A stretch of 64,000 nt of DNA from Pseudomonadota bacterium (lineage in GTDB: Bacteria > Pseudomonadota > Gammaproteobacteria > Burkholderiales > JAJZQI01): contig JAJZQI010000009.1 in assembly GCA_021851875.1 (NCBI GenBank), positions 40,038 through 104,037 of the forward strand, in the 5' to 3' direction. This document shows positions 2,509 to 63,635 of the stretch, piece by piece. Positions within the stretch are counted from its first letter, which is position 1, and the number at the start of each line of letters is the position of its first letter. Made by a program: the position numbers and the translations under genes. A model generated the notes under the pieces. That model was not told where the DNA came from. It was given only the letters and a program-made list of their open reading frames with translations, and did not search any database.

Positions 2509-3057
2509 ATGCGACTTGCAATTCTGTTGGTTTTGCTGCTTTCGGTTTCGCCGGCTCAGGCCGGTTCCATCTACCGCTGGGTGGATAAAAGCGGCAAGGT
2601 GCACGTGTCCGATCAGCCGCCGCCGTCTACAGCCCGGCAGGTCAACGAAATCGAAACCAGTACCCCGGTGGTGTCGGACGATCTGCCTTACGCCACCCGC
2701 CTGGCTGCCCAGCGTTTTCCGGTGACCTTGTATATGAACAGCTGTGGCGAGGTGTGCGGCAAGGCACGCTCATTCCTGATCAAGCGCGGCATCCCCTATA
2801 ACATGAAAAATCCCGAAGCCAGTCAGGCTATCAAGGATGAACTGAGGCAGCACGCCGGTTCGCTGCAAGTGCCCACCCTGCTGGTCGGCACGCATGTGGC
2901 CAAGGGCTTTAGCGAATCCGAGTGGGGCGATCTGCTCGACAGTGCGGGTTACCCGCGTTTTGCCGGCGCCAAGGCGCGCGATCTGGGGGCCGCCCCCGCC
3001 TCTGCGCCTGCCGCTTCTGCCGGCGCTGCGGCCAACAAACCGGCGGAAGGGTTTTAA
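2509..3057 (+). CDS. periplasmic DUF4124 / glutaredoxin-like fold protein
   Basis: AGGAGGAGGA lies upstream of the ATG. Signal peptide ends at SPAQA. DUF4124-type N-terminus IYRWVDKSGKVHVSDQPP is followed by VTLYMNSCGEVCGKARSFLIKRGIPY. Confidence 0.7.
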   Translation: MRLAILLVLLLSVSPAQAGSIYRWVDKSGKVHVSDQPPPSTARQVNEIETSTPVVSDDLPYATRLAAQRFPVTLYMNSCGEVCGKARSFLIKRGIPYNMKNPEASQAIKDELRQHAGSLQVPTLLVGTHVAKGFSESEWGDLLDSAGYPRFAGAKARDLGAAPASAPAASAGAAANKPAEGF

Positions 3058-3824
3058 TGAAGCTGGCTACCTGGAACGTTAATTCTCTGAAAGTACGCCT
3101 GCCGCACGTGCTCGACTGGCTGCAAAGCGCCGCTCCTGACGTGCTGTGCTTGCAGGAAACCAAGATGGAGGATGCGGTCTTTCCGGCGGCGGCCTTGCAG
3201 GAAGCCGGTTACCAGGTCGCATTCAGCGGGCAGAAAACCTACAACGGCGTGGCGATTCTGTCGCGCCAGCCGATGACAGATGTCATAACCGCCTTGCCCG
3301 GACTGCAGGATGAACAAAAGCGCTTGCTGGCCGCCACCATCGATGGCGTGCGGGTGGTATGTGTCTACATTCCCAACGGCCAGAGTCTCGATTCGGAAAA
3401 ATATCCCTATAAGCTGTCCTGGCTGGCCGCCCTGACCGATTTTTTGCGCGCCGAGATGGCCCAATATCCCCGCCTGGCCCTGTTGGGCGACTACAACATC
3501 GCCCCGGCAGACAGCGACGTGCATGACCCGGCTGCCTGGGTCGGGCAGGTGCTGGTGAGCGAGCCTGAGCGGGCCGCCTTTACGGGTTTGCTGGCACTGG
3601 GATTGAAGGATGCTTTTCGGCTGTTTGAACAGGAAGACAAGGCGTTTTCCTGGTGGGACTACCGCATGAACGCTTTCCGCCGCAACATGGGTTTGCGGAT
3701 TGACCACATTCTCTTGTCCGAAACATTGGCGGCCGGTTGCACGGTCTGCGCGATCGATAAGGCGCCACGCAAACTGGAACGCCCGTCCGACCATACGCCG
3801 GTGTGGGCGGAAATCAAGGACTGA
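3057..3824 (+). CDS. xthA: exodeoxyribonuclease III (AP endonuclease)
   Basis: Motifs MKLATWNVNSLKVRLPHV, LRIDHILLS and SDHTPVWAEI. ATG 3057 overlaps the previous stop (TAATG). The first 45 codons of ORF 2922..3824 lie inside the preceding gene. Confidence 0.9.
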   Translation: MKLATWNVNSLKVRLPHVLDWLQSAAPDVLCLQETKMEDAVFPAAALQEAGYQVAFSGQKTYNGVAILSRQPMTDVITALPGLQDEQKRLLAATIDGVRVVCVYIPNGQSLDSEKYPYKLSWLAALTDFLRAEMAQYPRLALLGDYNIAPADSDVHDPAAWVGQVLVSEPERAAFTGLLALGLKDAFRLFEQEDKAFSWWDYRMNAFRRNMGLRIDHILLSETLAAGCTVCAIDKAPRKLERPSDHTPVWAEIKD

Positions 3825-3832
3825 GAGAAAAG

Positions 3833-3907
3833 GCAGGACTGAGGTGGAAGGACTGGGGGCTGAGTGAAAAACCGCTTGACCCGGTTTGGCGCGCGGTGAA
3901 ATTTTTA
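3833..3907. repeat. conserved core of intergenic heptamer element (copy A)
   Basis: Degenerate inverted heptamers AGGACTG AGGTGGA AGGACTG GGGGCTG, then a spacer with an AAACCG-N7-CGGTTT hairpin, a TTGACC hexamer and a T5 run. About 80-85% identical by eye to 62051..62127. Confidence 0.8.
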
Positions 3908-3987
3908 CACTCCCCACTCCCCACTCCCCACTCCCCACTCCTCACTCCTCACTCCTCACTCCTCACTCCTCACTCCTCACTCCTCAC
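3908..3987. repeat. heptanucleotide tandem array, 4x CACTCCC + 7x CACTCCT
   Basis: Perfect period 7 read directly from the sequence. The final TCA (3984-3986) is the TGA stop of the minus-strand gene 3984..5174. Confidence 0.95.
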
Positions 3988-5174
3988 AACAGCAACAAAC
4001 GGTAGCCTGTCGGTTGGATCGAGCCGGTGCTGATATAGAGTTCGAGCGGCGTTTCGCTGTGCGCGGCAAAGCCGCTCGCCGGACTCCTTGCCGGCGGCAG
4101 GTAGTTCGACGGTTTCAGCTGGCGCCGGGCAACCGGCTGGTCGTCGCTGTCCGTAAAAGTCACCTCAATCATCGGCCAGGCTTGCGGCATGCCTGACTGA
4201 TTGCGCAGTACCATGGTCAGCAGAATGATGTCCGGCCGCTGCGGCAGCGCCTGCAGTTCCGACGCAGTGATATCCAGAGCCGACAGATCGTGCGGCAGCG
4301 GCAGGGTGCAGCGCAGCTGGCGGCAGGCCGCCTGTAAATACGGCTGGCTGGCTGGGTAGCCGGCAGCGATCTGGCTGCGGAATTCGTAAACGGCCTGTCC
4401 CGCCAGGCAAAGCAGCAGGACAAGGTTGGCCAGCACCCAGCGGCCGGTGTGGCGCTTGCGCAAGGGTATCGGGTGGTGAATATAGCTGCCGGTAAAAGCG
4501 GGTGATGCCTCCGATTCATCGGGCAGCAGCCCGTCGGCAGGCATTTTTTCATTCTTTGCGCTGCTCTGCAGCCCGGCGCTTGCGCCGCCTTCGGGCGGCG
4601 CGGCCGCCGTTTCCTCGCCCGGCACGGTAACGCCGGGAACGTTCGGCGTGGGTGGAGGGGCGAGATCGATATCGATGGGCTGTTCGGCCATGATGTCATC
4701 GAACTCATCCACTACTGCGCCATGCTGTTCCAGTTCGGGAATTTCATTTTCCGGCAGGGGCTCGGCGGATACGGATTGGGGCGGTTGGGCTGCCTCGCCT
4801 GGCGCGGACGGCTCCTGCTCCGTTGGCGGCAGGATGACGATGGTGGTCTCGGTTGTGAGCGGGACGCCCGCCGCGGGGGCGCCGACGGTGACTTCTTCGC
4901 TGCCTGCCAGCGCGTCATAGAAGGTGATCTCGATTTCTTCCGGCTCCGCCGCCGGTCTTGCCGCCTTAGGCGTTTCGTTCAGGGGCGGCGTGACATCAAG
5001 CAGGAATTCATCCGGAATGGTGGTATCGATCTGCTCCTGTGCCAGCGCGTCGAAGGCATTGAAGATCCGCAGGCAATGGCCGCAGCGAACCTCGCCCTGG
5101 CGCGCATTCAACTGTTCCGCCGTGACGCGGAAGGTTGTCTGGCAATGGGGGCAGGTCGTTACCATGCTGCTCAT
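3984..5174 (-). CDS. zinc-ribbon (MJ0042-type) / DUF3426-like membrane protein
   Basis: Start MSSMVTTCPHCQTTFRV...VRCGHCLRIF forms a zinc ribbon, followed by a Pro/Glu-rich linker and one TM segment (WVLANLVLLLCLAGQAV). The 25 codons upstream in the ORF overlap the prmA end. Position downstream of prmA is typical. Confidence 0.7.
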   Translation of the reverse strand: MSSMVTTCPHCQTTFRVTAEQLNARQGEVRCGHCLRIFNAFDALAQEQIDTTIPDEFLLDVTPPLNETPKAARPAAEPEEIEITFYDALAGSEEVTVGAPAAGVPLTTETTIVILPPTEQEPSAPGEAAQPPQSVSAEPLPENEIPELEQHGAVVDEFDDIMAEQPIDIDLAPPPTPNVPGVTVPGEETAAAPPEGGASAGLQSSAKNEKMPADGLLPDESEASPAFTGSYIHHPIPLRKRHTGRWVLANLVLLLCLAGQAVYEFRSQIAAGYPASQPYLQAACRQLRCTLPLPHDLSALDITASELQALPQRPDIILLTMVLRNQSGMPQAWPMIEVTFTDSDDQPVARRQLKPSNYLPPARSPASGFAAHSETPLELYISTGSIQPTGYRLLLL

Positions 5175-6101: not shown

Positions 6102-7454
6102 TCAGTCTTTCTTCGCCTGTGCCAGCTTGTGTTCCAGGTAATGGATGCTGGTGCCGCCGGCAATGAAGGCGGCATCGTTCATCAGGTCCTGGTGCAGACG
6201 CAGGTTGGTGGAAATGCCGTCGACAATCATCTCGGACAGGGCGATGCGCATCTTGGCGATGGCCTGCTCGCGCGTTTTGCCGTGCACGATGATCTTGCCG
6301 ATCATGGAGTCGTAATGCGGCGGCACGAAGTAGTTGGCATACACATGCGAGTCCACGCGCACGCCGGGGCCGCCCGGGCTATGGTAGGAGGTGATGCGGC
6401 CGGGCGACGGTACGAAGGTGTACGGGTCTTCGGCGTTGACGCGGCATTCGATGGCGTGGCCGTTGAGCACGACGTCTTTCTGTCGAACCAGCATTTTCTG
6501 GCCGGCGGCGATGCGGATCTGCTCCTGCACGATGTCGATGCCGGTGATCATTTCGGTGACCGGATGCTCCACCTGCACGCGGGTGTTCATCTCGATGAAG
6601 TAGAACTCGTTGTTCTCATACAGGAACTCGAATGTGCCGGCGCCGCGATAGCCGATCTTGCGGCAGGCTTCGGCACAGCGTTCGCCGATTTTGTTGCGTA
6701 CTTTCGGGTCGAGGCCGGGCGCCGGCGCTTCTTCCAGCACTTTCTGGTGGCGCCGCTGCATGGAACAGTCGCGTTCGCCCAGAAAAATGGCGTTGCCGTG
6801 TTCGTCCGCCAGTATCTGGATTTCGATGTGACGCGGGTTCTCGAGGAACTTTTCCATGTACACCGTGGGGTTGCCGAAAGCGCTTTGCGCTTCCGTCTGG
6901 GTCATGGTCACGGCATTGAGCAGGGCTGCTTCGGTGTGCACCACGCGCATGCCGCGCCCGCCACCGCCACCGGCCGCCTTGATGATGACCGGGAAGCCGA
7001 TCTTGCGGGCGATGCGCAGGATTTCCTGCGGATCTTCCGGCAGGGCGCCGTCGGAACCGGGTACGCAGGGCACGCCGGCGGCTTTCATGGCGTCCTTGGC
7101 GGAGACCTTGTCGCCCATCAGGCGAATGGTGTCGGCGCGCGGGCCGATAAAGACAAAGCCGGACTGTTCCACGCGTTCGGCAAAGTCGGCGTTTTCCGAC
7201 AGGAAGCCGTAACCGGGGTGGATTGCCTCGGCGTCGGTCACTTCCGCCGCGCTGATAATGGCCGGAACGTTCAGATAGCTCAGGCTCGACGGAGCCGGGC
7301 CGATACACACGGATTCGTCGGCCAGCTTGACGTATTTGGCCTCGCGATCCGCTTCGGAATGCACCGCGACGGTTTTGATGCCCAGCTCGCGGCAGGCGCG
7401 CTGAATGCGCAGGGCGATTTCGCCGCGGTTGGCGATGAGAATCTTTTCAAACAT
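6102..7454 (-). CDS. accC: acetyl-CoA carboxylase biotin carboxylase subunit
   Basis: [17 protein letters not shown], an ATP-grasp core and [14 protein letters not shown]. Start is ATG 7454, with GGAGA 6 nt upstream. The six upstream codons of the ORF belong to the repeat unit. Confidence 0.93.
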
Positions 7455-7696
7455 GGGTGGTCTCCGCGGCAAAATCTCCCGGACGGCTTGCAGCCGTCAG
7501 GCGATTTGGCTTCGCCGCTGCGCTGCCGTGGGGCAGCTGGTCACCGCGGTTGGCGATGAGAATTTTTTCAAACATTGTCGGTCTCCGCGGCAAAATCGCC
7601 CAAACGGCCTTCAGCCGTCAGGCGATTTGGCTTCGCCGCTGCGCTGCCATACGGCAGCTGGTCGCCGCGGTTGGCGCTAAGAATTTTTTCAAACAT
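7419..7696. repeat. 121-bp tandem repeat duplicating the accC 5' end (2 full units + 35-nt partial)
   Basis: Minus-strand ATGTTTGAAAA starts at 7454, 7575 and 7696, an exact 121-nt period. The units differ by a few substitutions. Each contains the hairpin GACGGCT-TGC-AGCCGTC or a near copy of it. Confidence 0.9.
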
Positions 7697-7711
7697 GCTT
7701 TGGGTTCCCGC

Positions 7712-11853: not shown

Positions 11854-12248
11854 GGCTGGCTGGGCGATGGCTGCGCCGTTTTGTGCTGGCGCTGGTTCTG
11901 CTGCTGGCCGTGCCGGCGCTGGCGGACGACGCGCAGGAGCTGTTTCGCCAGCATCGCTCGCATGTCTGGGTTGAGGTCGGCGGCCGCGTCGCGCGCCTGT
12001 TGCCGGATGACAGGCAGGGGGCGCGGCACCAGCGGTTCATTGTGCGGACCGAATCGGGCGTGACGCTGTTGGTCGCGCACAATATTGATCTGGCGCAACG
12101 GGCGCCGGTGCGCGTGGGCGATACGGTGAAGCTGCGGGGGGAATACATCTGGAACCGCCAGGGCGGTATTCTTCACTGGACCCATCGCGATCCGCAGCAG
12201 CGTCATCCCGGCGGCTGGATTGAAACGCCGCAGGGGCGGGTGCAATGA
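11850..12248 (+). CDS. DUF3465-like secreted protein
   Basis: Signal peptide ending ALADD. Motifs HQRFIVRTESGVTLLVAHNIDLA and GGILHWTHRD. The ATG overlaps the fxsA stop (ATGA). Confidence 0.6.
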   Translation: MRLAGRWLRRFVLALVLLLAVPALADDAQELFRQHRSHVWVEVGGRVARLLPDDRQGARHQRFIVRTESGVTLLVAHNIDLAQRAPVRVGDTVKLRGEYIWNRQGGILHWTHRDPQQRHPGGWIETPQGRVQ

Positions 12249-12290
12249 TGACAGGGTGAGATGACGGGATCGAGGACTGAGTAAGAAATC

Positions 12291-13160
12291 CTAGTCCCGG
12301 GTCTCCAATAAACGCCCTACCGTCGGATATCGTAAATTGGCATGAAGCTCCTCGTGTAGACGGCGGTTATCCAGTTGGCGTGACTCGGCAAGGAACGACA
12401 TTTGCAGTGCGCTGACCCGGCCGGCCAGCTCGACGCGCGACAGGCGCGGCGGACGCGGCAGGCCGGCGTAGTCGGCTACCTGATCGAAATAGTCGCCCAT
12501 TTTGAGCGGCTGGTCGTCGCTGGCATGGTAGACCCGGCAAGGGCGGGCGCGCCAAAGCGCCAGGATGGCCAGGCGTGCCAGGTCGTCGGCATGGATATGG
12601 TTGCTGTAGCTGTCTTCTGCCGGCAACAGCGCCGGCGTATGGTTGTGCAGGCGCTGCAGCGGCAGGCGGTCGCGGGCGTAAATGCCCGGGGCGCGCAGGA
12701 TGCCCAGACGGATGCGGCGCTGCCGCGCCCAGCGGCGCAGGGTGCGCTCGGCCTGCAGCCGGCGTTCGCCGCGGGCGGTGACCGGCCGGGGCGGGCGGGT
12801 TTCCTGCACCCGCTCACCCCGGCAGTCGCCATACACGCCGCTGGTACTGATATAGCTGAAGCGATATGGTACACTCCCCCGCTGCGACAGAGCGAGCGTC
12901 AGATGGCGCGTGCGCGTGTCGTGCGTGCCGCCGTCGGGGGGCGGCGCCATGTGAATGACCTGCTGAGCCAGCCCGGCCAGCCGTTTCAGGCTGCGGTAGT
13001 CGTCCAGGTCGCCGCTGATCGGGATAACGCCTTTGGCGCGCCAGTCCGCCGCCGCTTCGGCGCGGCGGACCAGTACATAGACACGCTGATAGCGTTGCAG
13101 CATTTCCGGTGGCAGGCGCTGAGCGACATCGCCCGCACCGATAATAAGTAGTCGTTGCAT
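12291..13160 (-). CDS. NAD(P)-dependent epimerase/dehydratase-family oxidoreductase
   Basis: N-terminal Rossmann motif MQRLLIIGAGDVAQRL. Length and layout fit an atypical SDR. Specific substrate unknown. Confidence 0.6.
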   Translation of the reverse strand: MQRLLIIGAGDVAQRLPPEMLQRYQRVYVLVRRAEAAADWRAKGVIPISGDLDDYRSLKRLAGLAQQVIHMAPPPDGGTHDTRTRHLTLALSQRGSVPYRFSYISTSGVYGDCRGERVQETRPPRPVTARGERRLQAERTLRRWARQRRIRLGILRAPGIYARDRLPLQRLHNHTPALLPAEDSYSNHIHADDLARLAILALWRARPCRVYHASDDQPLKMGDYFDQVADYAGLPRPPRLSRVELAGRVSALQMSFLAESRQLDNRRLHEELHANLRYPTVGRLLETRD

Positions 13161-13184: not shown

Positions 13185-14216
13185 ATGCCGCATCAAATCA
13201 CGATTCAGCCCAGTGGCCATACATTGCAGGCCCATGCGGACGAAACCATCCTGCAGGCTGCCCTGCGTGAAGGCTATGCGCTGCCGTACGGCTGCCGCAA
13301 CGGCGCCTGCGGCGCCTGCAAGGGCAAGGTGCTGGAAGGTTCGGTTGATTACGGCGCATACCAGCCGAATGCCTTGCCGCAGTCCGATATCGATGCCGGT
13401 TATGCCTTGTTCTGCTGCGCCCATCCGCAGTCGGACGTGGTGATTGAATGTCGTGAAGTGGGCGCGGCCAAGGATATTCAGATCAAAACGCTGCCTTGCC
13501 GCGTGCAGGTCATGGACAAACGCGCGCACGACGTGATGGTGCTGCAGCTGAAATTGCCGGCGACCGAACGGCTGCAGTTCCTGGCGGGGCAGTATATCGA
13601 CATCCTGCTGCGCGACGGGCGCCGCCGCAGCTTTTCGATCGCCAACGCGCCGCATAACGACGAATTCCTTGAGTTGCATGTTCGCCACATACCGGGCGGG
13701 CATTTCACCGGTCATGTGTTCGAAAAAATGAAGGAAAAGGATCTGCTGCGCTTTGAAGGTCCGTTGGGCACCTTTTTCCTGCGCGAGGGCGAAGAATACG
13801 ACAAGCCGATCATCTTTGTGGCCGGCGGAACCGGTTTTGCACCCATCAAGGGCATGCTGGAACACGCCTTCCATGCGCAAGACCAGCGTGAAATAGTGCT
13901 CTACTGGGGTGTTCGCAGCCTGCAGGATCTTTACATGGCTGAACTGCCGGCCAGGTGGCAGGCCGAGCATGCCAATTTCACCTTCATTCCGGTGTTGTCG
14001 GAAGCCAGGCCGGAGGACAATTGGCAAGGCCGCAGCGGGCTGGTGCACGAAGCCGTGATGGCCGATTTTGCAGATTTAGCGGGCTTTGATGTGTACGCCT
14101 GCGGCAACCCGCTGATGGTGGAGGCCGTGCACATGGGCTTACGCGCAAAAGGGTTGCAGGAGGACAGCTTCTACTCCGACGCCTTCCTGTTCGAAGACCC
14201 GACCAAGGGGGACTGA
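13185..14216 (+). CDS. 2Fe-2S ferredoxin / FNR-family NAD(P)H-flavin oxidoreductase
   Basis: GAGGGAAG RBS before ATG 13185. Plant-type cluster motif CRNGACGACKGKV, flavin motif RSFSIAN and NAD motif FVAGGTGFAPIKG. Confidence 0.8.
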   Translation: MPHQITIQPSGHTLQAHADETILQAALREGYALPYGCRNGACGACKGKVLEGSVDYGAYQPNALPQSDIDAGYALFCCAHPQSDVVIECREVGAAKDIQIKTLPCRVQVMDKRAHDVMVLQLKLPATERLQFLAGQYIDILLRDGRRRSFSIANAPHNDEFLELHVRHIPGGHFTGHVFEKMKEKDLLRFEGPLGTFFLREGEEYDKPIIFVAGGTGFAPIKGMLEHAFHAQDQREIVLYWGVRSLQDLYMAELPARWQAEHANFTFIPVLSEARPEDNWQGRSGLVHEAVMADFADLAGFDVYACGNPLMVEAVHMGLRAKGLQEDSFYSDAFLFEDPTKGD

Positions 14217-14222
14217 GTCTGC

Positions 14223-15404
14223 TCAGTCGCGTTGCGCGCTGGCACGCAACGCCGAACGGTAGTGTTCACAGGCCGCCTGCGGGCGGCCTGACTTTTCTTC
14301 CAGCCGGCCGAGCGCCTCGAGTGTTGCGCTCGTTTCGGCCAGCGCCAGGCTTTGCTTTAAGTAATGTTCCGCCTTGCCCCACAGCTGGGCATCCAGGCAG
14401 AGCTGCCCGAGCGAACGCAACAGACCTGCGTCTTGCGGGTGTTGTTTCAGCCAGTTTTCCGCTTTCTCCAGCAGCGGGGTCGGGTCGTCTGAGTGGCAGC
14501 CGCCATACAGGGCTGCCAGGCGGCTATCCCAATGCGCCGTGAGTGCCTCATCCAGCAGTTCCCGCGCCAATGCGCAGTGACCCGTGTCTTGCAGGACCTG
14601 TACGACCGGCGCGACGAAGTCGGGATGTATTTGCTCTTCCGGCGATAAGCGTTTCCAACTGTTGCGGGCCGTGTCGGTCTGGTCGGCCGCCTGCTTGCGC
14701 ATCAGTGCGACAATGGCCTGGCGGCGGAATTGCTGCAGCATCAATTCATTGCCGTCTCTGTCGGCCAGTTCCTTGCTGAGATCGAGTACGGCGGGCCAGT
14801 TCCTGAGCTGATGTTGCAGTTTCAGTTCACTTAAAGCCAGGGCGGCATTGCGCCGGTCAACCCGGCGCAGGCGCTGCACCTCGTCCAGCGCTTCGGCGTA
14901 GCGCCGCTGCTCGGTCCACAGGCTGGCGCGGGTGATGGCGGCAGGCAGAGCCCAGGGAGAGTCGGGGTGGTCGAGCTCGGCCAGGTAGCCGTCGCGCCGA
15001 TCCCAGGCTTTCAGTTGATGGGCCGACAGTGCGGCGATCAGGCCGGCAAGGGCCGGGGCATGCGGTTGCTGCAACAGTTCGGCGGCGGTTTTTTCGGCTC
15101 TGTTGTAGCGCTGCTCAAACCAGGCAATCAGGCTGGTCTCCAGCAAGTGGCGGTTTTTCCCTTCGTGCCGACGGGTGTGGTAGGCGCGCACGGTGGCCGG
15201 CAGGTTGAGCGTGCCGATCGCCAAGCGCACCAGCAGGTAAAAAACACCCAGGCCGGCCAGCAGCAGGACGGTAAAGAACGACAGGGCCATTTCCACCCGC
15301 CAGGGCGGGTAGACCATGACGACATAGCCGCTGTGATGCAGTGTAGCCAGGGCGAAGCCGACCGCGGTGCTGAACAGCAGCAGCAGCCACAGTATGCCTT
15401 TCAT
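14223..15404 (-). CDS. hemY: HemY-like TPR membrane protein
   Basis: Two N-terminal TM segments then TPR-like helices. Last gene of the hemC-hemD-hemX-hemY run. The ATG overlaps the hemX stop (ATGA). Confidence 0.8.
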   Translation of the reverse strand: MKGILWLLLLFSTAVGFALATLHHSGYVVMVYPPWRVEMALSFFTVLLLAGLGVFYLLVRLAIGTLNLPATVRAYHTRRHEGKNRHLLETSLIAWFEQRYNRAEKTAAELLQQPHAPALAGLIAALSAHQLKAWDRRDGYLAELDHPDSPWALPAAITRASLWTEQRRYAEALDEVQRLRRVDRRNAALALSELKLQHQLRNWPAVLDLSKELADRDGNELMLQQFRRQAIVALMRKQAADQTDTARNSWKRLSPEEQIHPDFVAPVVQVLQDTGHCALARELLDEALTAHWDSRLAALYGGCHSDDPTPLLEKAENWLKQHPQDAGLLRSLGQLCLDAQLWGKAEHYLKQSLALAETSATLEALGRLEEKSGRPQAACEHYRSALRASAQRD

Positions 15405-21499: not shown

Positions 21500-21531
21500 A
21501 CCGATATTGCCGGGGAAGCGGGGGGAACCGC

Positions 21532-28874: not shown

Positions 28875-28878
<4 letters not shown>
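27796..28878 (+). CDS. RND efflux membrane-fusion (periplasmic adaptor) protein
   Basis: CAGGAG RBS and lipoprotein-type signal LLAGGCG. Coiled-coil hairpin and beta-barrel regions are typical of the HlyD/AcrA family. Confidence 0.85.
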
Positions 28879-32240
<3,362 letters not shown>

Positions 32241-32486: not shown

Positions 32487-32495
32487 TTCTTTCAG

Positions 32496-32540
32496 CGGCT
32501 GAGCGCGCTGTGCATTGCGCTCAGCCGGCTTGTTTTTGTG
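32496..32540 (+). terminator. rho-independent terminator after the small ORF
   Basis: 11-bp perfect stem CGGCTGAGCGC / GCGCTCAGCCG with a 10-nt loop, followed by GCTTGTTTTTGTG. Confidence 0.75.
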
Positions 32541-33486: not shown

Positions 33487-33492
33487 TTGGCG

Positions 33493-33777
33493 ATGGATGC
33501 TCTACACTTCGAATGGGACGAGGCAAAGGCGAAAGCCAACGTCAAAAAGCATGGCGTAAGCTTTGAAGAGGCAAAGTCCGTCTTTCTGGATGACAAGGCC
33601 AAAATGATTCCTGACCCAGACCATTCTATTGAAGAAGAGCGCTTTGTTTTGCTGGGGTATAGCTCTAGCTTGAAGCTTCTCGTCGTGTGCCATTGTTATC
33701 GTGCAAAGGGCCGTGCAATTCGGATCATTTCGGCCCGGAAGGCAACACGCAAAGAGGAGCAGATTTACGGAAGGTGA
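33493..33777 (+). CDS. brnT: BrnT-family toxin (DUF497)
   Basis: MDALHFEWDEAKAKANVKKHGVSFEEAKSVF...RFVLLGYS...IRIISARKATRKEE, the classic BrnT/DUF497 pattern. Confidence 0.88.
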   Translation: MDALHFEWDEAKAKANVKKHGVSFEEAKSVFLDDKAKMIPDPDHSIEEERFVLLGYSSSLKLLVVCHCYRAKGRAIRIISARKATRKEEQIYGR

Positions 33778-33782
33778 CCACT

Positions 33783-33992
33783 ATGCGCGCTGAATACGAT
33801 TTTTCCAAAGCAGTAAAGAATCCCTATGCCTCTCAACTCAAGAAGCAAATCACGATCCGCCTGGACGAAGAGAGCATCAATTACTTCAAGTCCATATCAG
33901 AGGATGTGGGTATCCCGTATCAAAGCCTCATTAATCTTTACCTTAGGGATTGTGCTGCCTCCCATAGGAAACTCAATCTTAAGTGGAAGTAA
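33783..33992 (+). CDS. brnA: BrnA-family antitoxin
   Basis: MRAEYDFSKAVKNPYA...ITIRLDEESINYFK...GIPYQSLINLYLRD. Starts 6 nt after the brnT stop. Confidence 0.85.
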   Translation: MRAEYDFSKAVKNPYASQLKKQITIRLDEESINYFKSISEDVGIPYQSLINLYLRDCAASHRKLNLKWK

Positions 33993-43427: not shown

Positions 43428-43862
43428 ATGAAAGACAAATTAATCTCTTGCTCGACGGGTTTTCCTGCGGTTTCGGCTGAAACGGTGGGCGAACTGCTGG
43501 AACGGAGCGGCGTCAAGCCGACCGCGCAGCGCTTGGCTATTGCCCGCGTGCTGGCCGGTGCTTGCTGCCACTGGTCGGCCGAGCAGGTGGGCGACGTCGT
43601 GGGGGCCGAAGTGTCGCGGGCGACGGTGTACAACACGCTGAATCTGTTTGTCGAGAAGGGCTTGCTGCGCGAAGTGGTCGTCAGCCAGGAAAAGGTTTTC
43701 TACGATACCAATACCGCGCTGCACCATCATTTTTACGGGGTGGATGACGGGCACCTGATGGATATTCCGTTGGAGCAGCTGCCGATCGCCGCTTTGCCGC
43801 CCCTGCCCGCAGGGGTCGTGCTCGATACCGTGGATGTGGTGGTGCGGGTGCGCAGGGGCTGA
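43428..43862 (+). CDS. Fur-family transcriptional regulator lacking CxxC (Irr-like)
   Basis: Winged-helix region RATVYNTLNLFVEKGLL. A HHH motif in FYDTNTALHHHFYGVDDGHLMDI occupies the position where Fur has HHHDHLICxxCG. No structural-Zn cysteine pairs are present. Confidence 0.7.
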   Translation: MKDKLISCSTGFPAVSAETVGELLERSGVKPTAQRLAIARVLAGACCHWSAEQVGDVVGAEVSRATVYNTLNLFVEKGLLREVVVSQEKVFYDTNTALHHHFYGVDDGHLMDIPLEQLPIAALPPLPAGVVLDTVDVVVRVRRG

Positions 43863-43907
43863 TTTGGCAGTAACGCGGTGAACAGTAAGCAGTACTACAC
43901 TTTTGCC

Positions 43908-43985
43908 CGCTCACCGCTCACCGCTCACCGCTCACCGCTCACCGCTCACCGCTCACCGCTCACCGCTCACCGCTCACCGCCTCAC
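43908..43985. repeat. heptanucleotide tandem array, 10x CGCTCAC + 1 degenerate unit
   Basis: Perfect period 7 from 43908 to 43977, then CGCCTCAC. The minus-strand GNAT ORF runs about 3.5 units into the array and stops at its in-frame TGA (43960-43962). Confidence 0.95.
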
Positions 43986-44445
43986 GCCGCATGTCGATAT
44001 GCGGAATACCGTCCTCATCGTACTCGTCCGATACGGCCACAAAGCCGAACGCTGTATAAAATTGTTGCAGGTGGCTTTGGGCGGAGAGATGCAGGGCCGT
44101 GTCGGGGAAGTGCTGCCGGCCGAATTCGACGGCTTGATCCAGCAGTTGCTTGCCGAGTCCCCGGTTGCGCCAATCCGGCTGGACGACGACGCGTCCGATA
44201 GCCGGTTTGGCCTGTTTGCCGCCGGGGAACAGCAGGCGCAGACAGGCGACCAGCCCAGGGTTTTGTGGATCGGTACTCCAGCCAAGCAGGTGCCAGGCCT
44301 CCGGGTCGAGTCCGTCGATGTCCGGGTACAGGCAGGTCTGTTCCAGTACAAACACCTTTTGCCGCAATTCAAGCAGGGCATACAGCGCATCGCGCCCCAG
44401 CGACTGCCAGTCGTGCCACTGCCAGACCACGCTCGGCGTGTTCAT
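43960..44445 (-). CDS. GNAT-family N-acetyltransferase (ElaA-like)
   Basis: LYALLELRQKVFVLEQTCLYPDIDGLD, plus the acetyl-CoA site RVVVQPDWRNRGLGKQLL. The C-terminal residues AVSGER are encoded by the heptamer array. Confidence 0.8.
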   Translation of the reverse strand: MNTPSVVWQWHDWQSLGRDALYALLELRQKVFVLEQTCLYPDIDGLDPEAWHLLGWSTDPQNPGLVACLRLLFPGGKQAKPAIGRVVVQPDWRNRGLGKQLLDQAVEFGRQHFPDTALHLSAQSHLQQFYTAFGFVAVSDEYDEDGIPHIDMRREAVSGER

Positions 44446-50737: not shown

Positions 50738-50770
50738 AAGGGACAGGGCTTTGCCCTGTCCCTTTTTTAT
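50738..50770 (+). terminator. rho-independent terminator after glnA
   Basis: GGGACAGGGC-TTT-GCCCTGTCCC followed by TTTTTT. Confidence 0.85.
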
Positions 50771-50820
50771 TGCGCGAAACGGCGTCATTGCCTACACTGG
50801 GGCACTGGGAGGAATACATT

Positions 50821-60666: not shown

Positions 60667-61379
60667 TTCTGCTGATCGATGCGGGCAACAGCCGTTTGAA
60701 ATGGGGCGTGTGGTCGGGCTCAGGCTGGCTGGAACAGGGTAGTCTGGCTAATGACAATCTGCCGGCGCAGGCGCCCTGGAGGGATTTCACTCCGCTTGCG
60801 GCCGCCTGGGTGGCGCATGTCGGGCCAGCCCAGGTAGCCGACTGGATCCGTCGGCATGCCGCGGATACGGCATTGCACTGGCCCCGGGCGGCTGCGAGCC
60901 AGTGCGGGGTGGACAACCGTTATGAGCATGCCGAACAGTTGGGAGTGGACCGCTGGCTGGCCCTGATTGCGGCACGGGCTTTGCATGCGGGGCCGGTGCT
61001 GGTGGTGAGCGCGGGTACGGCGGTGACGGTGGATGCGCTGAGCGCGGACGGCGTGTTTCTAGGCGGAACGATTCTGCCCGGCCTGGGGCTGATGCGCGCT
61101 GCGCTGGCCAGCCGGGCGGCGCAATTGCACGATGTTCCCGGCCAATGGCAGCGTTTCCCGCGCAACACCGCCGACGCGATTCACAGCGGCTGTATCAACG
61201 CCATCGCCGGGGCCGTTCGCGCGCAGTGGCATGGGCTGGCGGCACTGCAGCAACAACCGGCTGTCTGCCTGTTGACCGGCGGCGCTGCGGCCGAACTGCT
61301 GTCGCATTTGGCCGATTTGCCGCTGCAGCAGGAAGATAATCTGGTACTGGACGGTTTACTGAGGATCTCGCAGTCATGA
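60663..61379 (+). CDS. coaX: type III pantothenate kinase
   Basis: ILLIDAGNSRLKWG and VSAGTAVTVD. The GTG start overlaps the birA stop. Confidence 0.88.
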   Translation: MILLIDAGNSRLKWGVWSGSGWLEQGSLANDNLPAQAPWRDFTPLAAAWVAHVGPAQVADWIRRHAADTALHWPRAAASQCGVDNRYEHAEQLGVDRWLALIAARALHAGPVLVVSAGTAVTVDALSADGVFLGGTILPGLGLMRAALASRAAQLHDVPGQWQRFPRNTADAIHSGCINAIAGAVRAQWHGLAALQQQPAVCLLTGGAAAELLSHLADLPLQQEDNLVLDGLLRISQS

Positions 61380-62050
61380 TGCGTTTGCTGTTTGTGTTGC
61401 TGCTGCTGGCCAACGTGGCGCTGGCGGTGTACTGGTATAGCGGAATGCAGAAACAGAATGGCGTTGCGGCCTCTCCGCCTTTGCGCGCGGAGCAGATTCG
61501 TCTGCTGACGCCTGCCGAAGTGGCGTCGGCATTGACCGCGGCCAGTGGCGTGGCGAATTCGGCTTCCGCCGTTGCCGCGCCGGTTTTTGTTTGCATGCAG
61601 TGGGATAATTTGTCGGCCAAGAGTGCGGATGTGGCACGTAGCCAGTTGCAAGCCGCCGGCGTGACAGGACCGATTGGCGTGCAATCGTTGGCGCCCAGCG
61701 ATGCCAAACACTGGGTTTACATGCCGCCGCAGGGCAGCCGCGCCAATGCCGAAAAGAAGATCGGCGAACTGGAGACGCTCGGGGTGAGCGAATACCATCT
61801 GGAGGCGGGCGAAGGAAAGTGGCAGTGGGCCATTTCTCTTGGCGTGTTCTCCAATGAGGAGCGCGCGCAGCATTTTCTCGAGGATTTGCACAAGAAAGGC
61901 GTGCGCTCGGCCCGCATGGGTCCGCGCGATGCTTCGGTCACCAGCGTTACGCTACGCTTTACTGTGCCCGACAACAGCTGGGTCGATAAACTGGTTGCCA
62001 TTCGTCAGCAGTTTGCCGGTTCCAGCCTGCACGCAGTGAACTGCAAGTAA
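61376..62050 (+). CDS. SPOR-domain membrane protein
   Basis: N-terminal TM segment LLFVLLLLANVALAVYW. C-terminal SPOR-like repeat (WVYMPPQGSRANAEKKIGELETLGV...WAISLGVFSNEERAQHFLEDL). Confidence 0.7.
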   Translation: MMRLLFVLLLLANVALAVYWYSGMQKQNGVAASPPLRAEQIRLLTPAEVASALTAASGVANSASAVAAPVFVCMQWDNLSAKSADVARSQLQAAGVTGPIGVQSLAPSDAKHWVYMPPQGSRANAEKKIGELETLGVSEYHLEAGEGKWQWAISLGVFSNEERAQHFLEDLHKKGVRSARMGPRDASVTSVTLRFTVPDNSWVDKLVAIRQQFAGSSLHAVNCK

Positions 62051-62127
62051 GCAGGACTGGGGTGGAGGGACTGAGGACTATGTGAAAAACCATTTGACCC
62101 GGTTTGGTGTGGGCGGTGAAATTTTTA
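62051..62127. repeat. conserved core of intergenic heptamer element (copy C)
   Basis: Begins directly after the SPOR-gene TAA. AGGACTG GGGTGGA GGGACTG AGGACTA + TGTGAAAAACCATTTGACCCGGTTTGG...GGTGAAATTTTTACAC is about 80-85% identical by eye to 3833..3907. Confidence 0.8.
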
Positions 62128-62257
62128 CACTCCTCACTCCTCACTCCTCACTCCTCACTCCTCACTCCTCACTCCTCACTCCTCACTCCTCACTCCTCAC
62201 TCCTCACTCCTCACTCCTCACTCCTCACTCCTCACTCCTCACTCCTCACTCCTCACT
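62128..62257. repeat. heptanucleotide tandem array, 18x CACTCCT
   Basis: Perfect period 7 from 62128 to 62253, then CACT. The final TCA (62253-62255) is the TGA stop of the minus-strand gene 62253..63635. Confidence 0.95.
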
Positions 62258-63635
62258 TTCCCCAAGGGAACAGCTTGCCGGGGTTGAGGATCAGTTGCGG
62301 ATCGAAGGTCTTTTTGATGTCCCGCATCAGTTGCAGGGTAACCGGGTCGATTTCGCGGTCGACAAAGGCACGCTTTTCGCTGCCGACGCCATGTTCGCCT
62401 GACAGGGTGCCGTGCAGTTGCAGGACCAGCGAGAAAATTTCGTCCAGGCAGGCCTCCGCCCGCAGCATTTCCTGCGGGTCGTCCGGATTGACCAGCAGAT
62501 TGACGTGGATATTGCCGTTGCCGGCATGACCGAAATTGGCGTTGGCGATCTGATGCCGGCTGCTGATGCGTCTGAGGCCGCTCAGCAATTCAGGCAGGCG
62601 CGATACCGGCACCACCACGTCTTCATTGATTTTCTTCGGCGCAATATCGCGCAGCAGCGGTGACAGGGCCTTGCGTGCCGCCCACAGGCGGGCCGTGTCC
62701 GATGCCTCCTGGGCGTTGATCAGACCATCGTTTTGCAATGCCTGCAGGATGGCGGCTGCCGTTGCGGCAAGTTCGTGCGCGCTGCCGTCGATCTCGATCA
62801 TCAGCATGGCTTGCGTGTCGTCCGGCAGCAAACCGGGCTGGCGGCCGCGGATCAGCTGCAGCGAGGCGGCATCGAGCAATTCCAGTGCGCTGGGGATGTG
62901 CGGTTGGGCCATTACGGCAGCAATGGCGCGGGCGCAGCTTTCGATATCGCGGTAGTGGGCGGTGATGCCGCCGGTTTTTTCCGGCAGGGGGGTGAGTTTC
63001 AGCGTGGCTTCGGTAATGACGGCCAGCGTGCCTTCCGAGCCGACCAGCAGCCGGGTCAGGTCATAGCCGACGACACCCTTGGTGGTGTAACAGCCGGTGC
63101 GGATGATGTCGCCCTTGCCGGTAACGGCCTTGAGCCCCAGCACATGGTCGCGCGTGGTGCCGTATTTGACGGCATGCGGGCCGCCGGCGCCGGTGGCCAG
63201 ATTGCCGCCGATGGAGCAGAACGGCGCGCTGGTGGGGTCGGGCGGCCAGAAAAAGCCGTGCGGTTTGGCGCTGTCCTGCACAGTCTGATTCAGTACGCCC
63301 GGCTCCACCACGATGGCGCGATTGGCCGGGTCAACGGTTATGACCCGGTCCATGCGCTCGAGTGACAAAGCAATCCCACCCTGTTCGGGCAGGCTGCCGC
63401 CGGCTGTGCCGGTGCCGCGTCCGCGTGGCGTGACGGGCACGTTGAATTCATTGCACAGGCGCAGAATCTGGCTGATTTCCTCTGCCGTCAGGGCGAAGAC
63501 GACCGCTTGCGGCAGAGTCAGGCGGCGGCTGTTGTCGTAGGCATAGGCCAGGCAGTCGGCCGGATCGGTGAGCACCCGGTCGGCCGGCAGCAGGCGCTGC
63601 AGCCGGATCAGCATGGCGTCGGGCAGGGCGTTCAC
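62253..63635 (-). CDS. FAD-linked oxidase (GlcD / D-lactate dehydrogenase family)
   Basis: FAD-binding PCMH domain (VTPRGRGTGTAGGSLP, GGNLATGAGG) and a C-terminal GEHGVGSEKR motif. Confidence 0.85.
   Translation of the reverse strand: MNALPDAMLIRLQRLLPADRVLTDPADCLAYAYDNSRRLTLPQAVVFALTAEEISQILRLCNEFNVPVTPRGRGTGTAGGSLPEQGGIALSLERMDRVITVDPANRAIVVEPGVLNQTVQDSAKPHGFFWPPDPTSAPFCSIGGNLATGAGGPHAVKYGTTRDHVLGLKAVTGKGDIIRTGCYTTKGVVGYDLTRLLVGSEGTLAVITEATLKLTPLPEKTGGITAHYRDIESCARAIAAVMAQPHIPSALELLDAASLQLIRGRQPGLLPDDTQAMLMIEIDGSAHELAATAAAILQALQNDGLINAQEASDTARLWAARKALSPLLRDIAPKKINEDVVVPVSRLPELLSGLRRISSRHQIANANFGHAGNGNIHVNLLVNPDDPQEMLRAEACLDEIFSLVLQLHGTLSGEHGVGSEKRAFVDREIDPVTLQLMRDIKKTFDPQLILNPGKLFPWGK

Follow-up and report, generated by a model that had tools for sequence, protein, structure and literature searches.

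The closest described relatives of the element that concerns us here are heptameric repeats, GGGAATC in Xanthomonas and GGGGA[C/T]T (cyanobacterial STRR-type) in Nostoc, treated by Rehm et al. 2015 (PMC4692102). These G-rich heptamers lie on the coding strand 0–50 nt after the stop codon, some of them overlapping it; their arrays are rarer than expected between divergent genes and, at the same sites, differ strongly in length among close relatives (PMC4692102). Xanthomonas carries 70–75 convergent (inverted) array pairs able to form stem-loops, and G-quadruplex formation is the property emphasized for the heptamers of both genera (PMC4692102). In many bacterial genomes no long simple repeats outnumber heptamers, and slippage of the polymerase has been put forward as their cause (Mrazek 2007, in PMC4679880). 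Units of 5–11 nt are typical of large, high-G+C genomes of nonpathogens, Betaproteobacteria included, and the polymerase footprint has been proposed to favor slippage of long simple repeats (Mrazek et al. 2007, in PMC4679880 and PMC4692102); as represented in those two papers, that work was a statistical survey, without stop-codon anchoring or hairpin architecture. Another heptamer, the TAACTGA direct repeat of Beggiatoaceae, Cyanobacteria and Bacteroidetes, sits mostly just upstream of starts, in 2–6 copies (MacGregor 2015, PMC4679880).

How does the present locus compare? The window (the whole stretch of DNA that was analyzed, 64,000 nt) holds an element in two copies, A and B, and a third array elsewhere (Table 1). 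Tandem 7-nt units are present in 11.4 copies at A, 18.6 at B and 11.1 at the third site, against the three to four or more by which such a repeat is recognized, and at all three sites the minus-strand gene has its stop codon within the array, an overlap known also from Xanthomonas and Nostoc. Intergenic heptamers, a G-rich coding strand at the stop, inverted pairs and length variation are all shared with those genera, and one of the units found here, GGGACTG in a left arm, is a rotation of the Nostoc unit GGGGACT. The differences are equally plain. The units AGGAGTG and TGAGCGG carry only GG, not a GGG run (some left-arm units do have GGG or GGGG), so that G-quadruplexes are not expected and the explanation built on them does not apply; each unit contains a TGA in sense orientation; two loci have in common a nonrepetitive hairpin core of ~45 nt; and there are three arrays in 64 kb. 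The TAACTGA repeats are likewise intergenic heptamer arrays with stop codons in the unit and a patchy phylogenetic distribution (PMC4679880), but the arrays here lie downstream of both genes and reach 18 copies. Judged by its sequence, the element is a member, and a new one, of the class of heptameric repeats known from Xanthomonas and Nostoc.

A second family of extragenic repeats deserves mention. The REP, BIME and REPIN sequences of Gammaproteobacteria are imperfect palindromes, often at 3' ends and in convergent gaps, whose hairpins stabilize the upstream mRNA; they occur in hundreds of copies, are tied to the RAYT transposase and are not tandem heptamers. REPs within ~15 nt of a stop codon reportedly reduce translation via ribosome stalling and tmRNA, a finding attributed to Liang, Rudd and Deutscher in 2015. 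Our element resembles them as a hairpin between convergent genes at 3' ends and differs in being built of heptamers; 2 copies were counted in 73 kb, and no RAYT was seen among the eight scanned ORFs or in the neighbor tables.

Table 1. Positions in the window of the element, its flanking genes at copy B, the third array and a probable relic
Feature	Position	Strand	Details and basis
Copy A of the element	3825..3987	+	Left arm ~3834-3864, core 3865-3907, array 3908-3987
Probable relic of a related left arm	12256..12290	+	GGGATCGAGGACTGAGTAAGAAATCC; DUF3465 / epimerase convergent gap
Third array	43907..43985	+	(CCGCTCA)x11, CACTTTTGCC ahead; TRF (11.1 copies), ORFs, Pfam
Left flank of copy B: SPOR-domain protein, 224 aa	61376..62050	+	ORF list; Pfam SPOR E=3e-6
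Left arm of copy B	62053..62080	+	AGGACTG GGGTGGA GGGACTG AGGACTA; inverted-repeat search
Central hairpin core of copy B	62080..62131	.	Outer stem GUGAAAAA / UUUUUACAC; variable apex (TTGACCCGGTTTGG...GCGG)
Right arm of copy B	62128..62257	+	(CACTCCT)x18 perfect + CACT; TRF
Right flank of copy B: FAD-linked oxidase (GlcD/D-lactate dehydrogenase-like), 460 aa	62253..63635	-	ORF list; PF01565+PF02913 (Pfam, orthologues)

The initial annotation had described copy B as 18 perfect CACTCCT units occupying the whole space between two convergent genes, and both statements hold. Tandem Repeats Finder (TRF) gives a period of 7 with 100% matches over the array, a regular-expression check places the 18 perfect units at 62128-62253 with CACT after them, and the 202-nt gap between the SPOR and oxidase ORFs is filled entirely. 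The left arm begins 2–3 nt past the SPOR stop (TAA at 62048-62050), and at the other end the oxidase TGA (TCA at 62253-62255) falls inside the array, whose minus strand reads (AGGAGTG)n, with a TGA in each unit. Copy A has the same setting. It lies between an xthA-like exonuclease III gene (3054-3824, +) and a Zn-ribbon/DUF3426 gene (3984-5174, -) on whose TGA, at 3984-3986, the array ends, here made of 4 CACTCCC followed by 7 CACTCCT. When the core of B (62051-62127, 77 nt) is set against that of A (3833-3907, 75 nt), 65 positions are identical, one more than had been estimated by eye, and this bears out the earlier view that there are two paralogous copies of a core-plus-array element: as far as sequence can tell, A is a true paralogue of B. 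The ~45 nt common to the two is nonrepetitive. Within the window, GTGAAAAACCNNTTGACCCGGTTTGG occurs in exactly these two copies and nowhere else (0.00 expected from shuffles), and GGTGAAATTTTTACAC, in a scan allowing up to 3 mismatches, again in exactly the two (0.21 expected).

What had been called the core is not uniform, and its first ~30 nt are themselves inverted, degenerate heptamers. At copy B the left arm amounts to four of them, the inverted complement of a CAGTCCT/CACTCCT array; an inverted-repeat search finds 25 nt of it 72% complementary to every register of the array. Compared with (AGGACTG)x4, this arm agrees at 21 of 28 positions, the second-best non-array match on both strands of the window, and across 128 kb of sequence nothing outside the arrays matches the inverted heptamer better than the inverted left arms do. 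A profile of the element also matches its own reverse strand (E=4e-5). With the array repeated in inverted, degenerate form in the left part of the core, the element as a whole is one long imperfect hairpin.

At its center the core is predicted to fold as a hairpin on either strand (−11.2 and −10.7 kcal/mol), with an A-run and a T-run placed symmetrically about it at copy B; read on the minus strand, GCGG runs straight into UUUUU. The outer stem is identical in all four copies folded, and the apices differ. These central stems are short (4–5 GC pairs) and their loops large (17–21 nt), but with ~3–4 heptamers from each arm the core forms a stem of ~25–30 bp, which is the conserved part. Taken whole, the element folds no more stably than its shuffles do (z = −0.5 to −1.6), a comparison that says little, because any purine-rich sequence next to a pyrimidine-rich one pairs well. 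A hairpin flanked by an A-run and, opposite it, a T-run, and filling a convergent gap, is what one would expect of a bidirectional intrinsic terminator, from which the element departs in its short central stem, in its 17- to 21-nt loop, against the 3–8 nt of a consensus terminator with a G+C-rich stem of at least 5 bp and a U-tract, and in an arm stem far longer; a consensus terminator scan of 61800-62500 made no call, and the core nonetheless folds, with GCGG and then UUUUU. Other convergent gaps in the window hold plain hairpins that carry T-runs (50740-50785, 32490-32540 and 21500-21531 among them); the gaps at A, B and the third array have the element alone. Might the core belong to an annotated family with a known role, as the initial annotation had allowed? 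Rfam 15 gives 0 matches over the whole window at gathering thresholds, and in E-value mode the two copies draw only matches that fall well short of gathering scores, almost all of them to miRNA hairpin families of eukaryotes.

The element has a history that can be read from relatives. A sister species at ~85% nucleotide identity has A and B in the same convergent gaps; relatives at 74–77% protein identity have neither. A scan of 185,579 species genomes with GGTGAAATTTTTACACTCC returned the sister-species metagenome-assembled genome and three chance matches without arrays, and the pattern GTGAAAAACC-N20-45-ATTTTTACACTCC has 0 exact matches in JGI metagenomes, from which it follows that either the core is restricted to this lineage or the lineage is absent from those metagenomes. 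(The SPOR-domain protein is encoded identically in 10 public contigs.) An nhmmer search with a four-sequence core profile through the window and all fetched loci found no further copies, apart from the weak relic of Table 1 (E=0.023, 12257-12300). That relic matches (AGGACTG)x4 at 18 of 28 positions, third best in the window, and has no array in the present genome; in the sister species, CACCCCT (CACACCT)x2 occupies this site and runs up to the epimerase stop. The count over the 64 kb plus flanks is three arrays and one relic.

Within this conservation of place, number and sequence of units move freely. Copy B has 18 units here, 17 in GCA_021847085.1, an independent assembly of the same species (one unit fewer, which short-read assembly may have miscounted), and 3 in the sister species. 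Copy A has 11, the same in two other assemblies (three assemblies, no variation), against 8 or 7; its sister-species orthologue is 5 CACTCCT followed by 3 CAGTCCT. Between the species, then, CACTCCT has given way to CAGTCCT, and copy A also has CACTCCC. The third array lies where a Fur-family gene (43428-43862, +) converges on a GNAT acetyltransferase gene (43960-44445, -), and its 11 units of CCGCTCA correspond, in orthologous gaps, to (CCGTTCA)x18, (CCGTTCA)x11 or (CGTCTCA)x2, the unit having been altered in concert across relatives. The third array has kept its site in three or more species. The initial annotation had offered a slippage-prone microsatellite as one description of the array and had proposed comparing unit numbers across isolates; counts of 18/17/3 at B and 2/11/11/18 at the third array provide the expected length polymorphism.

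The same annotation made much of an array that ends exactly on a stop codon. The fact stands, for the TGA is in the array at both A and B, but it is less special than it looks, because every minus-strand unit contains a TGA and, with a period of 7, each of the three frames meets a stop within 21 nt. There is also a rule of orientation. Whatever the locus or species, the array's gene-side end coincides with the stop of the gene reading TGA-NNNN or passes it by 1–3 units. The sister-species oxidase reads two units into the array (PWRTED*), the GNAT ORF ends inside the third array after ~2–3 units, and the conserved C-termini GYRLLLL* and DMRRE[T/R]* mark natural gene ends. CACTCCT arrays, and variants that do not resemble a Shine–Dalgarno (SD) sequence, are common in metagenome and viral contigs and obey the same stop rule. 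Among 75 informative CACTCCT arrays in public contigs, a gene stop lies in the array or within 60 nt of it on the TGA-sense side in 38 cases and on the other side in 13, the distances on the TGA-sense side clustering at −22 to +5; the corresponding counts are 10 and 4 for CAGTCCT, 5 and 0 for CCGCTCA, and 17 and 4 for CACTGCT. These figures come from crude ORF calls (at least 120 aa, with a GC3 filter), and the TGA-sense class is inflated, since any ORF on the TGA strand must stop on reaching the array.

How, then, can the architecture, the paralogy of A and B, the conservation of orthologous sites, the variation in unit number and sequence, and the orientation rule, all of them matters of observation, be brought under one explanation? 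The one that we favor, and on balance judge probable, if not comfortably so, is a lineage-specific intergenic hairpin of inverted heptamer arms, in which a stop-anchored slippage repeat would have become part of a 3'-end structure shared by both transcripts. The order of the parts would be a degenerate left arm of ~4 AGGACTG-like units, a hairpin with its A-run and T-run, and a right arm of CAGTCCT/CACTCCT, which replication slippage has presumably grown here to 18 perfect units, a variable-number tandem repeat. Each unit amounts to a TGA with 4 nt added, which anchors the array on the stop of the minus-strand gene. If a tandem duplication takes in the stop codon, no harm is done, for translation still ends at the first in-frame TGA, and only in the TGA orientation, where duplication is harmless and stops arise in all three frames, can an array grow next to a 3' end. 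Arrays may thus be seeded by stop codons themselves. Such seeding leaves the complementarity of the two arms unexplained, and also the 45-nt nonrepetitive core common to A and B. In function, the hairpin would take the place of the ordinary terminator hairpin of other gaps in the window, and it is most likely a shared 3'-end structure of both convergent transcripts, whether as a bidirectional terminator or as a block to exonucleases.

A different account would make the element mobile. In it, a nonautonomous, MITE- or REPIN-like unit, with the heptamer arms as its terminal inverted repeats, would have been transposed or mobilized in trans by a transposase or RAYT. The arms are indeed inverted, an unrelated viral contig has two copies of an analogous element whose loops read alike over the ~22 nt compared, and A and B, 58 kb apart, are 83% identical in the core, at least as high as the 72–78% between orthologues, which suggests copying or gene conversion after speciation. 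No target-site duplication accompanies the inverted arms, however, at either copy (the flanks are GAAAAG and AACAGC at A, AAGTAA and TTTCCC at B), and neither the eight window ORFs scanned with Pfam nor the neighbor tables, which cover part of the window, include a transposase or RAYT. With only 2 copies in the 64 kb and 9 kb of flank, sites unchanged since the species split, exact core matches lacking in JGI, and the sister species as the only other bearer of the core among the 185,579 species genomes, we consider mobility unlikely.

Could it instead be the array, more than the hairpin, that does the work? A G-rich sense strand might promote R-loops or pausing and so termination, or the repeated heptamers might offer a row of binding sites to a protein or an RNA chaperone. 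The purine- and G-rich strand is always sense for the abutting gene, here and in public contigs, as it is in Xanthomonas and Nostoc (PMC4692102); the arrays persist at the same sites in three or more species, and the units within an array are homogenized. A dose-sensitive function sits badly, though, with 2 to 18 units at one locus in close relatives, the unit sequence is unlike between loci, and the orientation rule would also follow from simple tolerance, a stop being supplied only in the TGA orientation. We find this account quite unlikely, and we are as doubtful of a still broader one, in which heptamer arrays anchored on stop codons would serve bacterial and phage genes at large as a functional module of the 3' end and would not be mere slippage debris: a unit of TGA plus 4 nt with a purine-rich sense strand, often arranged as inverted arms around an A-run/T-run hairpin, would furnish a three-frame fail-safe stop together with a tunable terminator or insulator, its strength set by unit number.

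The initial annotation had seen in the minus-strand transcript 18 copies of AGGAG, a pentamer like the SD sequence, directly after the oxidase stop, and had wondered whether such a tract holds terminating ribosomes or 30S subunits or affects 3'-end stability; in full, the units would bind the anti-SD of 16S rRNA and so alter recycling or 3'-end stability. In its favor, the array begins at the stop codon, other contigs commonly have purine-rich heptamer arrays right behind a stop, and AGGAGUGA is close to AGGAGGUGA, the full SD complement expected from the usual 16S 3' end. Comparison with relatives makes the idea very unlikely. In the sister species the units at the orthologous loci read AGGACUG (CAGTCCT), which breaks AGGAG, and the clade's other arrays anchored in like manner are TGAGCGG, TGAACGG, TGAGACG and TGAGGUG (TGAGGTG in DNA). 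In viral contigs, the SD-broken CACTGCT and CAGTCCT (37 and 34 contigs) are at least as frequent as CACTCCT (27), with the same orientation bias; and since the genes are convergent, there is nothing downstream to reinitiate. The resemblance to a Shine–Dalgarno sequence appears incidental, and a “ribosome-binding-site array” is an unsupported reading of CACTCCT that can be removed. Least credible of all, and justly rated low from the start, is an outward promoter, TTGACC...TGAAAT, giving a (CACUCCU)n RNA antisense to the oxidase 3' end or mimicking the anti-SD: the TTGACC hexamer is in both copies of the present genome, but their spacing is unequal, orthologues have TTGATC or TTGCCC (and one of them TGCAAT as its “−10”), no Rfam family is matched, and we dropped the idea because a consensus promoter scan of 61800-62500 finds none.

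Two further readings can be set aside. Plus-strand ORFs at 62082-62402 and 62104-62529 would translate the array as HSSLLTP repeats; we rejected them because the start is not kept in copy A and changes of 7-nt units shift the frame. Nor does the array resemble the contingency repeats of phase variation, which sit within a reading frame or between promoter elements: at both A and B it lies downstream of both genes, where unit changes have no power to shift a frame upstream of the stop, and the flanking genes are of housekeeping types.

Among heptanucleotide repeats the locus is a clean example, with persistence in the same gap across species, a unit that evolves in concert, lengths from 2–3 to 18 and an array that always begins on a stop codon, properties that point to a simple and testable origin by harmless duplication of the stop-bearing heptamer. 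Practical consequences follow for annotation. The arrays alter predicted C-termini, which matters for metagenome-assembled genomes: after KLFP, the oxidase homologues end in PWGK*, PWGN*, PWRTED* or SETKK*, and an exact look-up of the window's oxidase protein finds no entry, the public assembly reading N in place of K at the last codon. Heptamer arrays also break short-read assemblies, so that many contigs end in them and chimeric contigs join two species. One such case at first suggested recombination between copies, a junction of the SPOR gene to the Zn-ribbon gene in contigs L001 and L003. We rejected recombination in favor of chimeric assembly: to the left of the junction identity with the window is 99.99%, to the right ~85%, as in the sister species, and L003 comes from a sample, ERZ27237461, that also gave contigs of both species.

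Element B, a core followed by an array of CACTCCT units, is real and was correctly described at the outset: it fills the whole 202-nt gap between the convergent SPOR-domain and FAD-linked oxidase genes, with 18 perfect units (62128-62253) followed by CACT, and it reaches the oxidase stop codon (see the table). The claim that its paralogue, element A, also ends at the stop of a convergent gene (for a Zn-ribbon/DUF3426 protein) was borne out as well. The two cores agree at 65 positions of the 77-nt core of B, and their two longest motifs are found within the window only at A and B, the shuffle expectation being 0.00 matches to the first motif and, with up to 3 mismatches allowed in the scan, 0.21 to the second. 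A and B are paralogues.

Coordinates of heptamer elements, adjoining genes and other repeats in the window
Feature	Position	Strand	Details
SPOR-domain ORF	61376-62050	+	TAA at 62048-62050
Element B, core	62051-62127		left arm AGGACTG GGGTGGA GGGACTG AGGACTA
Element B, array	62128-62257		period 7, 18.6 copies, 100% matches, unit CACTCCT (Tandem Repeats Finder)
FAD-linked oxidase ORF	62253-63635	-	TGA, read as TCA at 62253-62255
Element A, core	3833-3907		left arm AGGACTG AGGTGGA AGGACTG GGGGCTG
Zn-ribbon/DUF3426 gene, stop	3984-3986		TGA
Array C	43907-43985		(CCGCTCA)x11, convergent gap between Fur-family and GNAT genes
Probable left-arm relic	~12246-12290 (relic 12256-12290)		fourth convergent gap of the window
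Single-copy hairpin	14205-14228		6-nt convergent gap, GACTGAG-TCTG-CTCAGTC
accC-start repeat	7423-7697	-	between accB and accC, 121-nt unit, 2.3 copies
AcrB/RND transporter ORF	28875-32240		
Repeat in AcrB/RND ORF	30103-30382		93-nt unit, 3.0 copies, 97% identical, in frame
BrnT-family toxin gene	33487-33777		Pfam E=1e-29
Short ORF after BrnT-family gene	33784-33990		could be BrnA antitoxin

What, then, is the core? Its left ~30 nt, a point overlooked in the initial annotation, consist of degenerate heptamers in inverted orientation, 72% complementary to the array in every register; against (AGGACTG)x4 the left arms of A and B score 22/28 and 21/28, and outside the arrays nothing else in the 64 kb, on one strand or the other, matches as well. 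The arms enclose a small hairpin: the four known copies share its stem, GAGUGAAAAA / UUUUUACACUC, and its apex differs among them in sequence with pairing retained. Arms and central hairpin thus make the element one long imperfect palindrome, and its profile matches its own reverse strand (E=4e-5). No Rfam family matches it, and the target-site duplication expected of a MITE is absent from the element. REP/REPIN elements are defined by other properties, their copy number and the presence of a RAYT.

No long simple repeat is more abundant than the heptanucleotide in many bacterial genomes, above all those that are large and rich in G+C, and slippage linked to the polymerase footprint is the proposed cause (Mrazek 2007, as summarised in PMC4679880 and PMC4692102). 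In Xanthomonas and Nostoc, Rehm et al. reported arrays of GGGAATC and of GGGGA(C/T)T, respectively, which lie on the coding strand 0-50 nt past the stop (some overlap it), are rare between divergent genes, differ in length between close relatives and, in Xanthomonas, form 70-75 convergent inverted pairs per genome, potential stem-loops; no function was found for them (PMC4692102). The present element matches this description in all respects but G-quadruplex potential, and adds a shared nonrepetitive hairpin core and units that all contain a TGA. The known class of gene-end heptameric repeats gains in it a new member, one that is anchored on stop codons and takes the form of a hairpin.

On the strand of the gene that enters it, every array of the clade is built of TGA plus 4 nt (TGAGGAG, TGAGGAC, TGAGGTG, TGAGCGG, TGAACGG, TGAGACG), and because 7 and 3 share no common factor, no frame runs on past 21 nt without a stop. 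That the arrays begin at the natural gene end is shown by two conserved C-termini, GYRLLLL* in the Zn-ribbon protein and DMRRE[T/R]* in GNAT; small changes extend the ORF by one to three units, as in PWRTED* (oxidase of a sister species at ~85% nucleotide identity) and AVSGER* (GNAT of the window). Arrays follow an orientation rule. Among 75 informative CACTCCT arrays in public contigs, 38 have a TGA-strand ORF that stops in the array or within 60 nt of it (most distances -22 to +5), against just 13 with a gene that ends at the opposite side, counts that rest on crude calls of ORFs of at least 120 aa, with TGA-strand ORFs forced to end at the array; CAGTCCT (10 v 4), CCGCTCA (5 v 0) and CACTGCT (17 v 4) share this bias. 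The simplest origin would be tandem duplication of a heptamer containing the stop codon, which does no harm, since termination still occurs at the first TGA. Read in the opposite orientation, an array is open in all frames and would append a frame-shifting tail to the protein.

Array C, also missed at first, is preceded by a T-run, as are A and B; the GNAT ORF ends inside it, and its inverted left arm is weak. Two MAGs encoding the same Fur protein have (CCGTTCA)x18 and x11 in the orthologous gap, a further lineage has (CGTCTCA)x2, and each of these arrays starts at the GNAT stop. This third array is old and dynamic. A fourth convergent gap retains just a probable left-arm relic; its sister-species orthologue (contig L001, 18776-18975) is a further inverted-heptamer element, with GGAGTGAGGGGG at the left gene's stop, a spacer of ~150 nt, and then CTTTTTCAC CCCTCAC ACCTCAC ACCTCAC adjoining the epimerase gene stop. 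Elsewhere, the hairpin at 14205-14228 holds both genes' stop codons, its arms each consisting of one copy of the motif (AGGACTGAG / CTCAGTCCT) that the heptamer elements have amplified.

The source organism is an uncultured betaproteobacterium (window G+C 61.6%), with its nearest named oxidase homologues in Sulfurirhabdus, Sulfuricella and Nitrosomonas (71-73% identity). Most same-species public contigs (99.9-100% identity) terminate inside array B. Assemblies differ in unit number: one contig that spans array B (GCA_021847085.1) has 17 units, together with a K-to-N change in the last oxidase codon, and another same-species contig carries a variant unit, CACTACT. Copy A, at 4+7 units, is unchanged in three assemblies. 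The sister species keeps both elements in the same gaps, B as core + CACTCCT CAGTCCT CAGTCC (on which four independent assemblies agree) and A as core + 5 (or 4) CACTCCT + 3 CAGTCCT; in relatives at 74-77% oxidase identity the spacers are unrelated. The elements persist at orthologous convergent gaps; their units change in concert, and the number of units swings widely. Core identity is 0.83 between paralogues and 0.72 and 0.78 between orthologues, which hints at copying or gene conversion, ~83 columns being too few for certainty. In two contigs, L001 and L003 (ENA ERZ27237442 / ERZ27237461), the left flank of copy B, 99.99% identical to the window, continues through the shared core and array, at locus position ~10780, into the right flank of the sister species' copy A (~85%); most likely the repeat gave rise to a chimeric assembly, since the L003 sample also yielded contigs of both species.

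Might the AGGAG of each unit be read as a Shine-Dalgarno sequence, as was suggested at the start? That interpretation is not supported: the sister species has lost AGGAG in its CAGTCCT units, and the pentamer is absent from the clade's other arrays, which are equally anchored on stop codons. Viral contigs carrying three or more units number 27 for CACTCCT, 34 for CAGTCCT, 37 for the Shine-Dalgarno-breaking variant CACTGCT, 9 for CCGCTCA, and 12 and 13 for the same-composition permutations CTCTCAC and CCACTTC; in JGI metagenomes, CACTCCT reaches at least 5 units in at least 120 contigs.

The other early suggestion, a slippage-prone microsatellite, holds as far as the large swings in unit number go, and replication slippage would be the mechanism we infer for expansion after seeding at a stop codon. 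What is conserved, arms of ~3-4 units plus core, may, to judge by its position, form a common 3'-end hairpin of both convergent transcripts, because other convergent gaps of the window hold ordinary hairpin/T-run terminators, whereas these hold the element alone. Read on the minus strand, the core has UUUUU immediately after GCGG; a consensus scan (61800-62500) called no terminator in the element. One arm would then have overgrown recently, and probably neutrally, to give the 18-unit tract. Each 8-kb block has a positive GC skew (+0.05 to +0.09; whole window +0.07), and in all three expanded arrays the C-rich strand is the + strand, which is compatible with strand-biased slippage, although three cases prove nothing. 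The degenerate arm is always on the left.

Many public arrays have an inverted partner arm (for example L030, L027/L042, L033, L036, L052, L062, L068, L095, L107, L123), at least L030 and L068 with an A-run/T-run loop besides. A recurrent unrelated family from gut, other metagenome or viral contigs (L067, L097, L099, L102, L108, L119, L125, L050) consists of a hairpin, GCGGCGC / AT-rich loop / GCGCCGC, then 4-5 nt and (CACTCCT)x5-8, with flanks alike across contigs of different samples. Long composite tracts in metagenome and viral contigs (L057, L074, L103, L038, L047, L105), reminiscent of cyanobacterial STRR clusters, place different heptamer arrays directly end to end, for example CCCACAC/CCCATAC, then CGCCTCA, then CACTCCT, or CACTCCT, CACTCTC, CACTCCT and CACTCTT in succession (~39 units).

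Other features of the window deserve mention. The accC-start repeat yields three accC starts, ATGTTTGAAAA(A/G)ATTCT..., that is, MFEKIL(I/S)ANRG, of which copies 1-2 are each followed by ~86 nt with small hairpins and only the third runs on into accC; it is also present in GCA_021847085.1 (L276), annotated there as two 42-aa ORFs, and is absent from the sister species. The AcrB/RND repeat adds ~93 residues (protein residue 512 aligns with profile position 419). The BrnT/putative BrnA pair lies among genes that are otherwise housekeeping, in a stretch of lower G+C.
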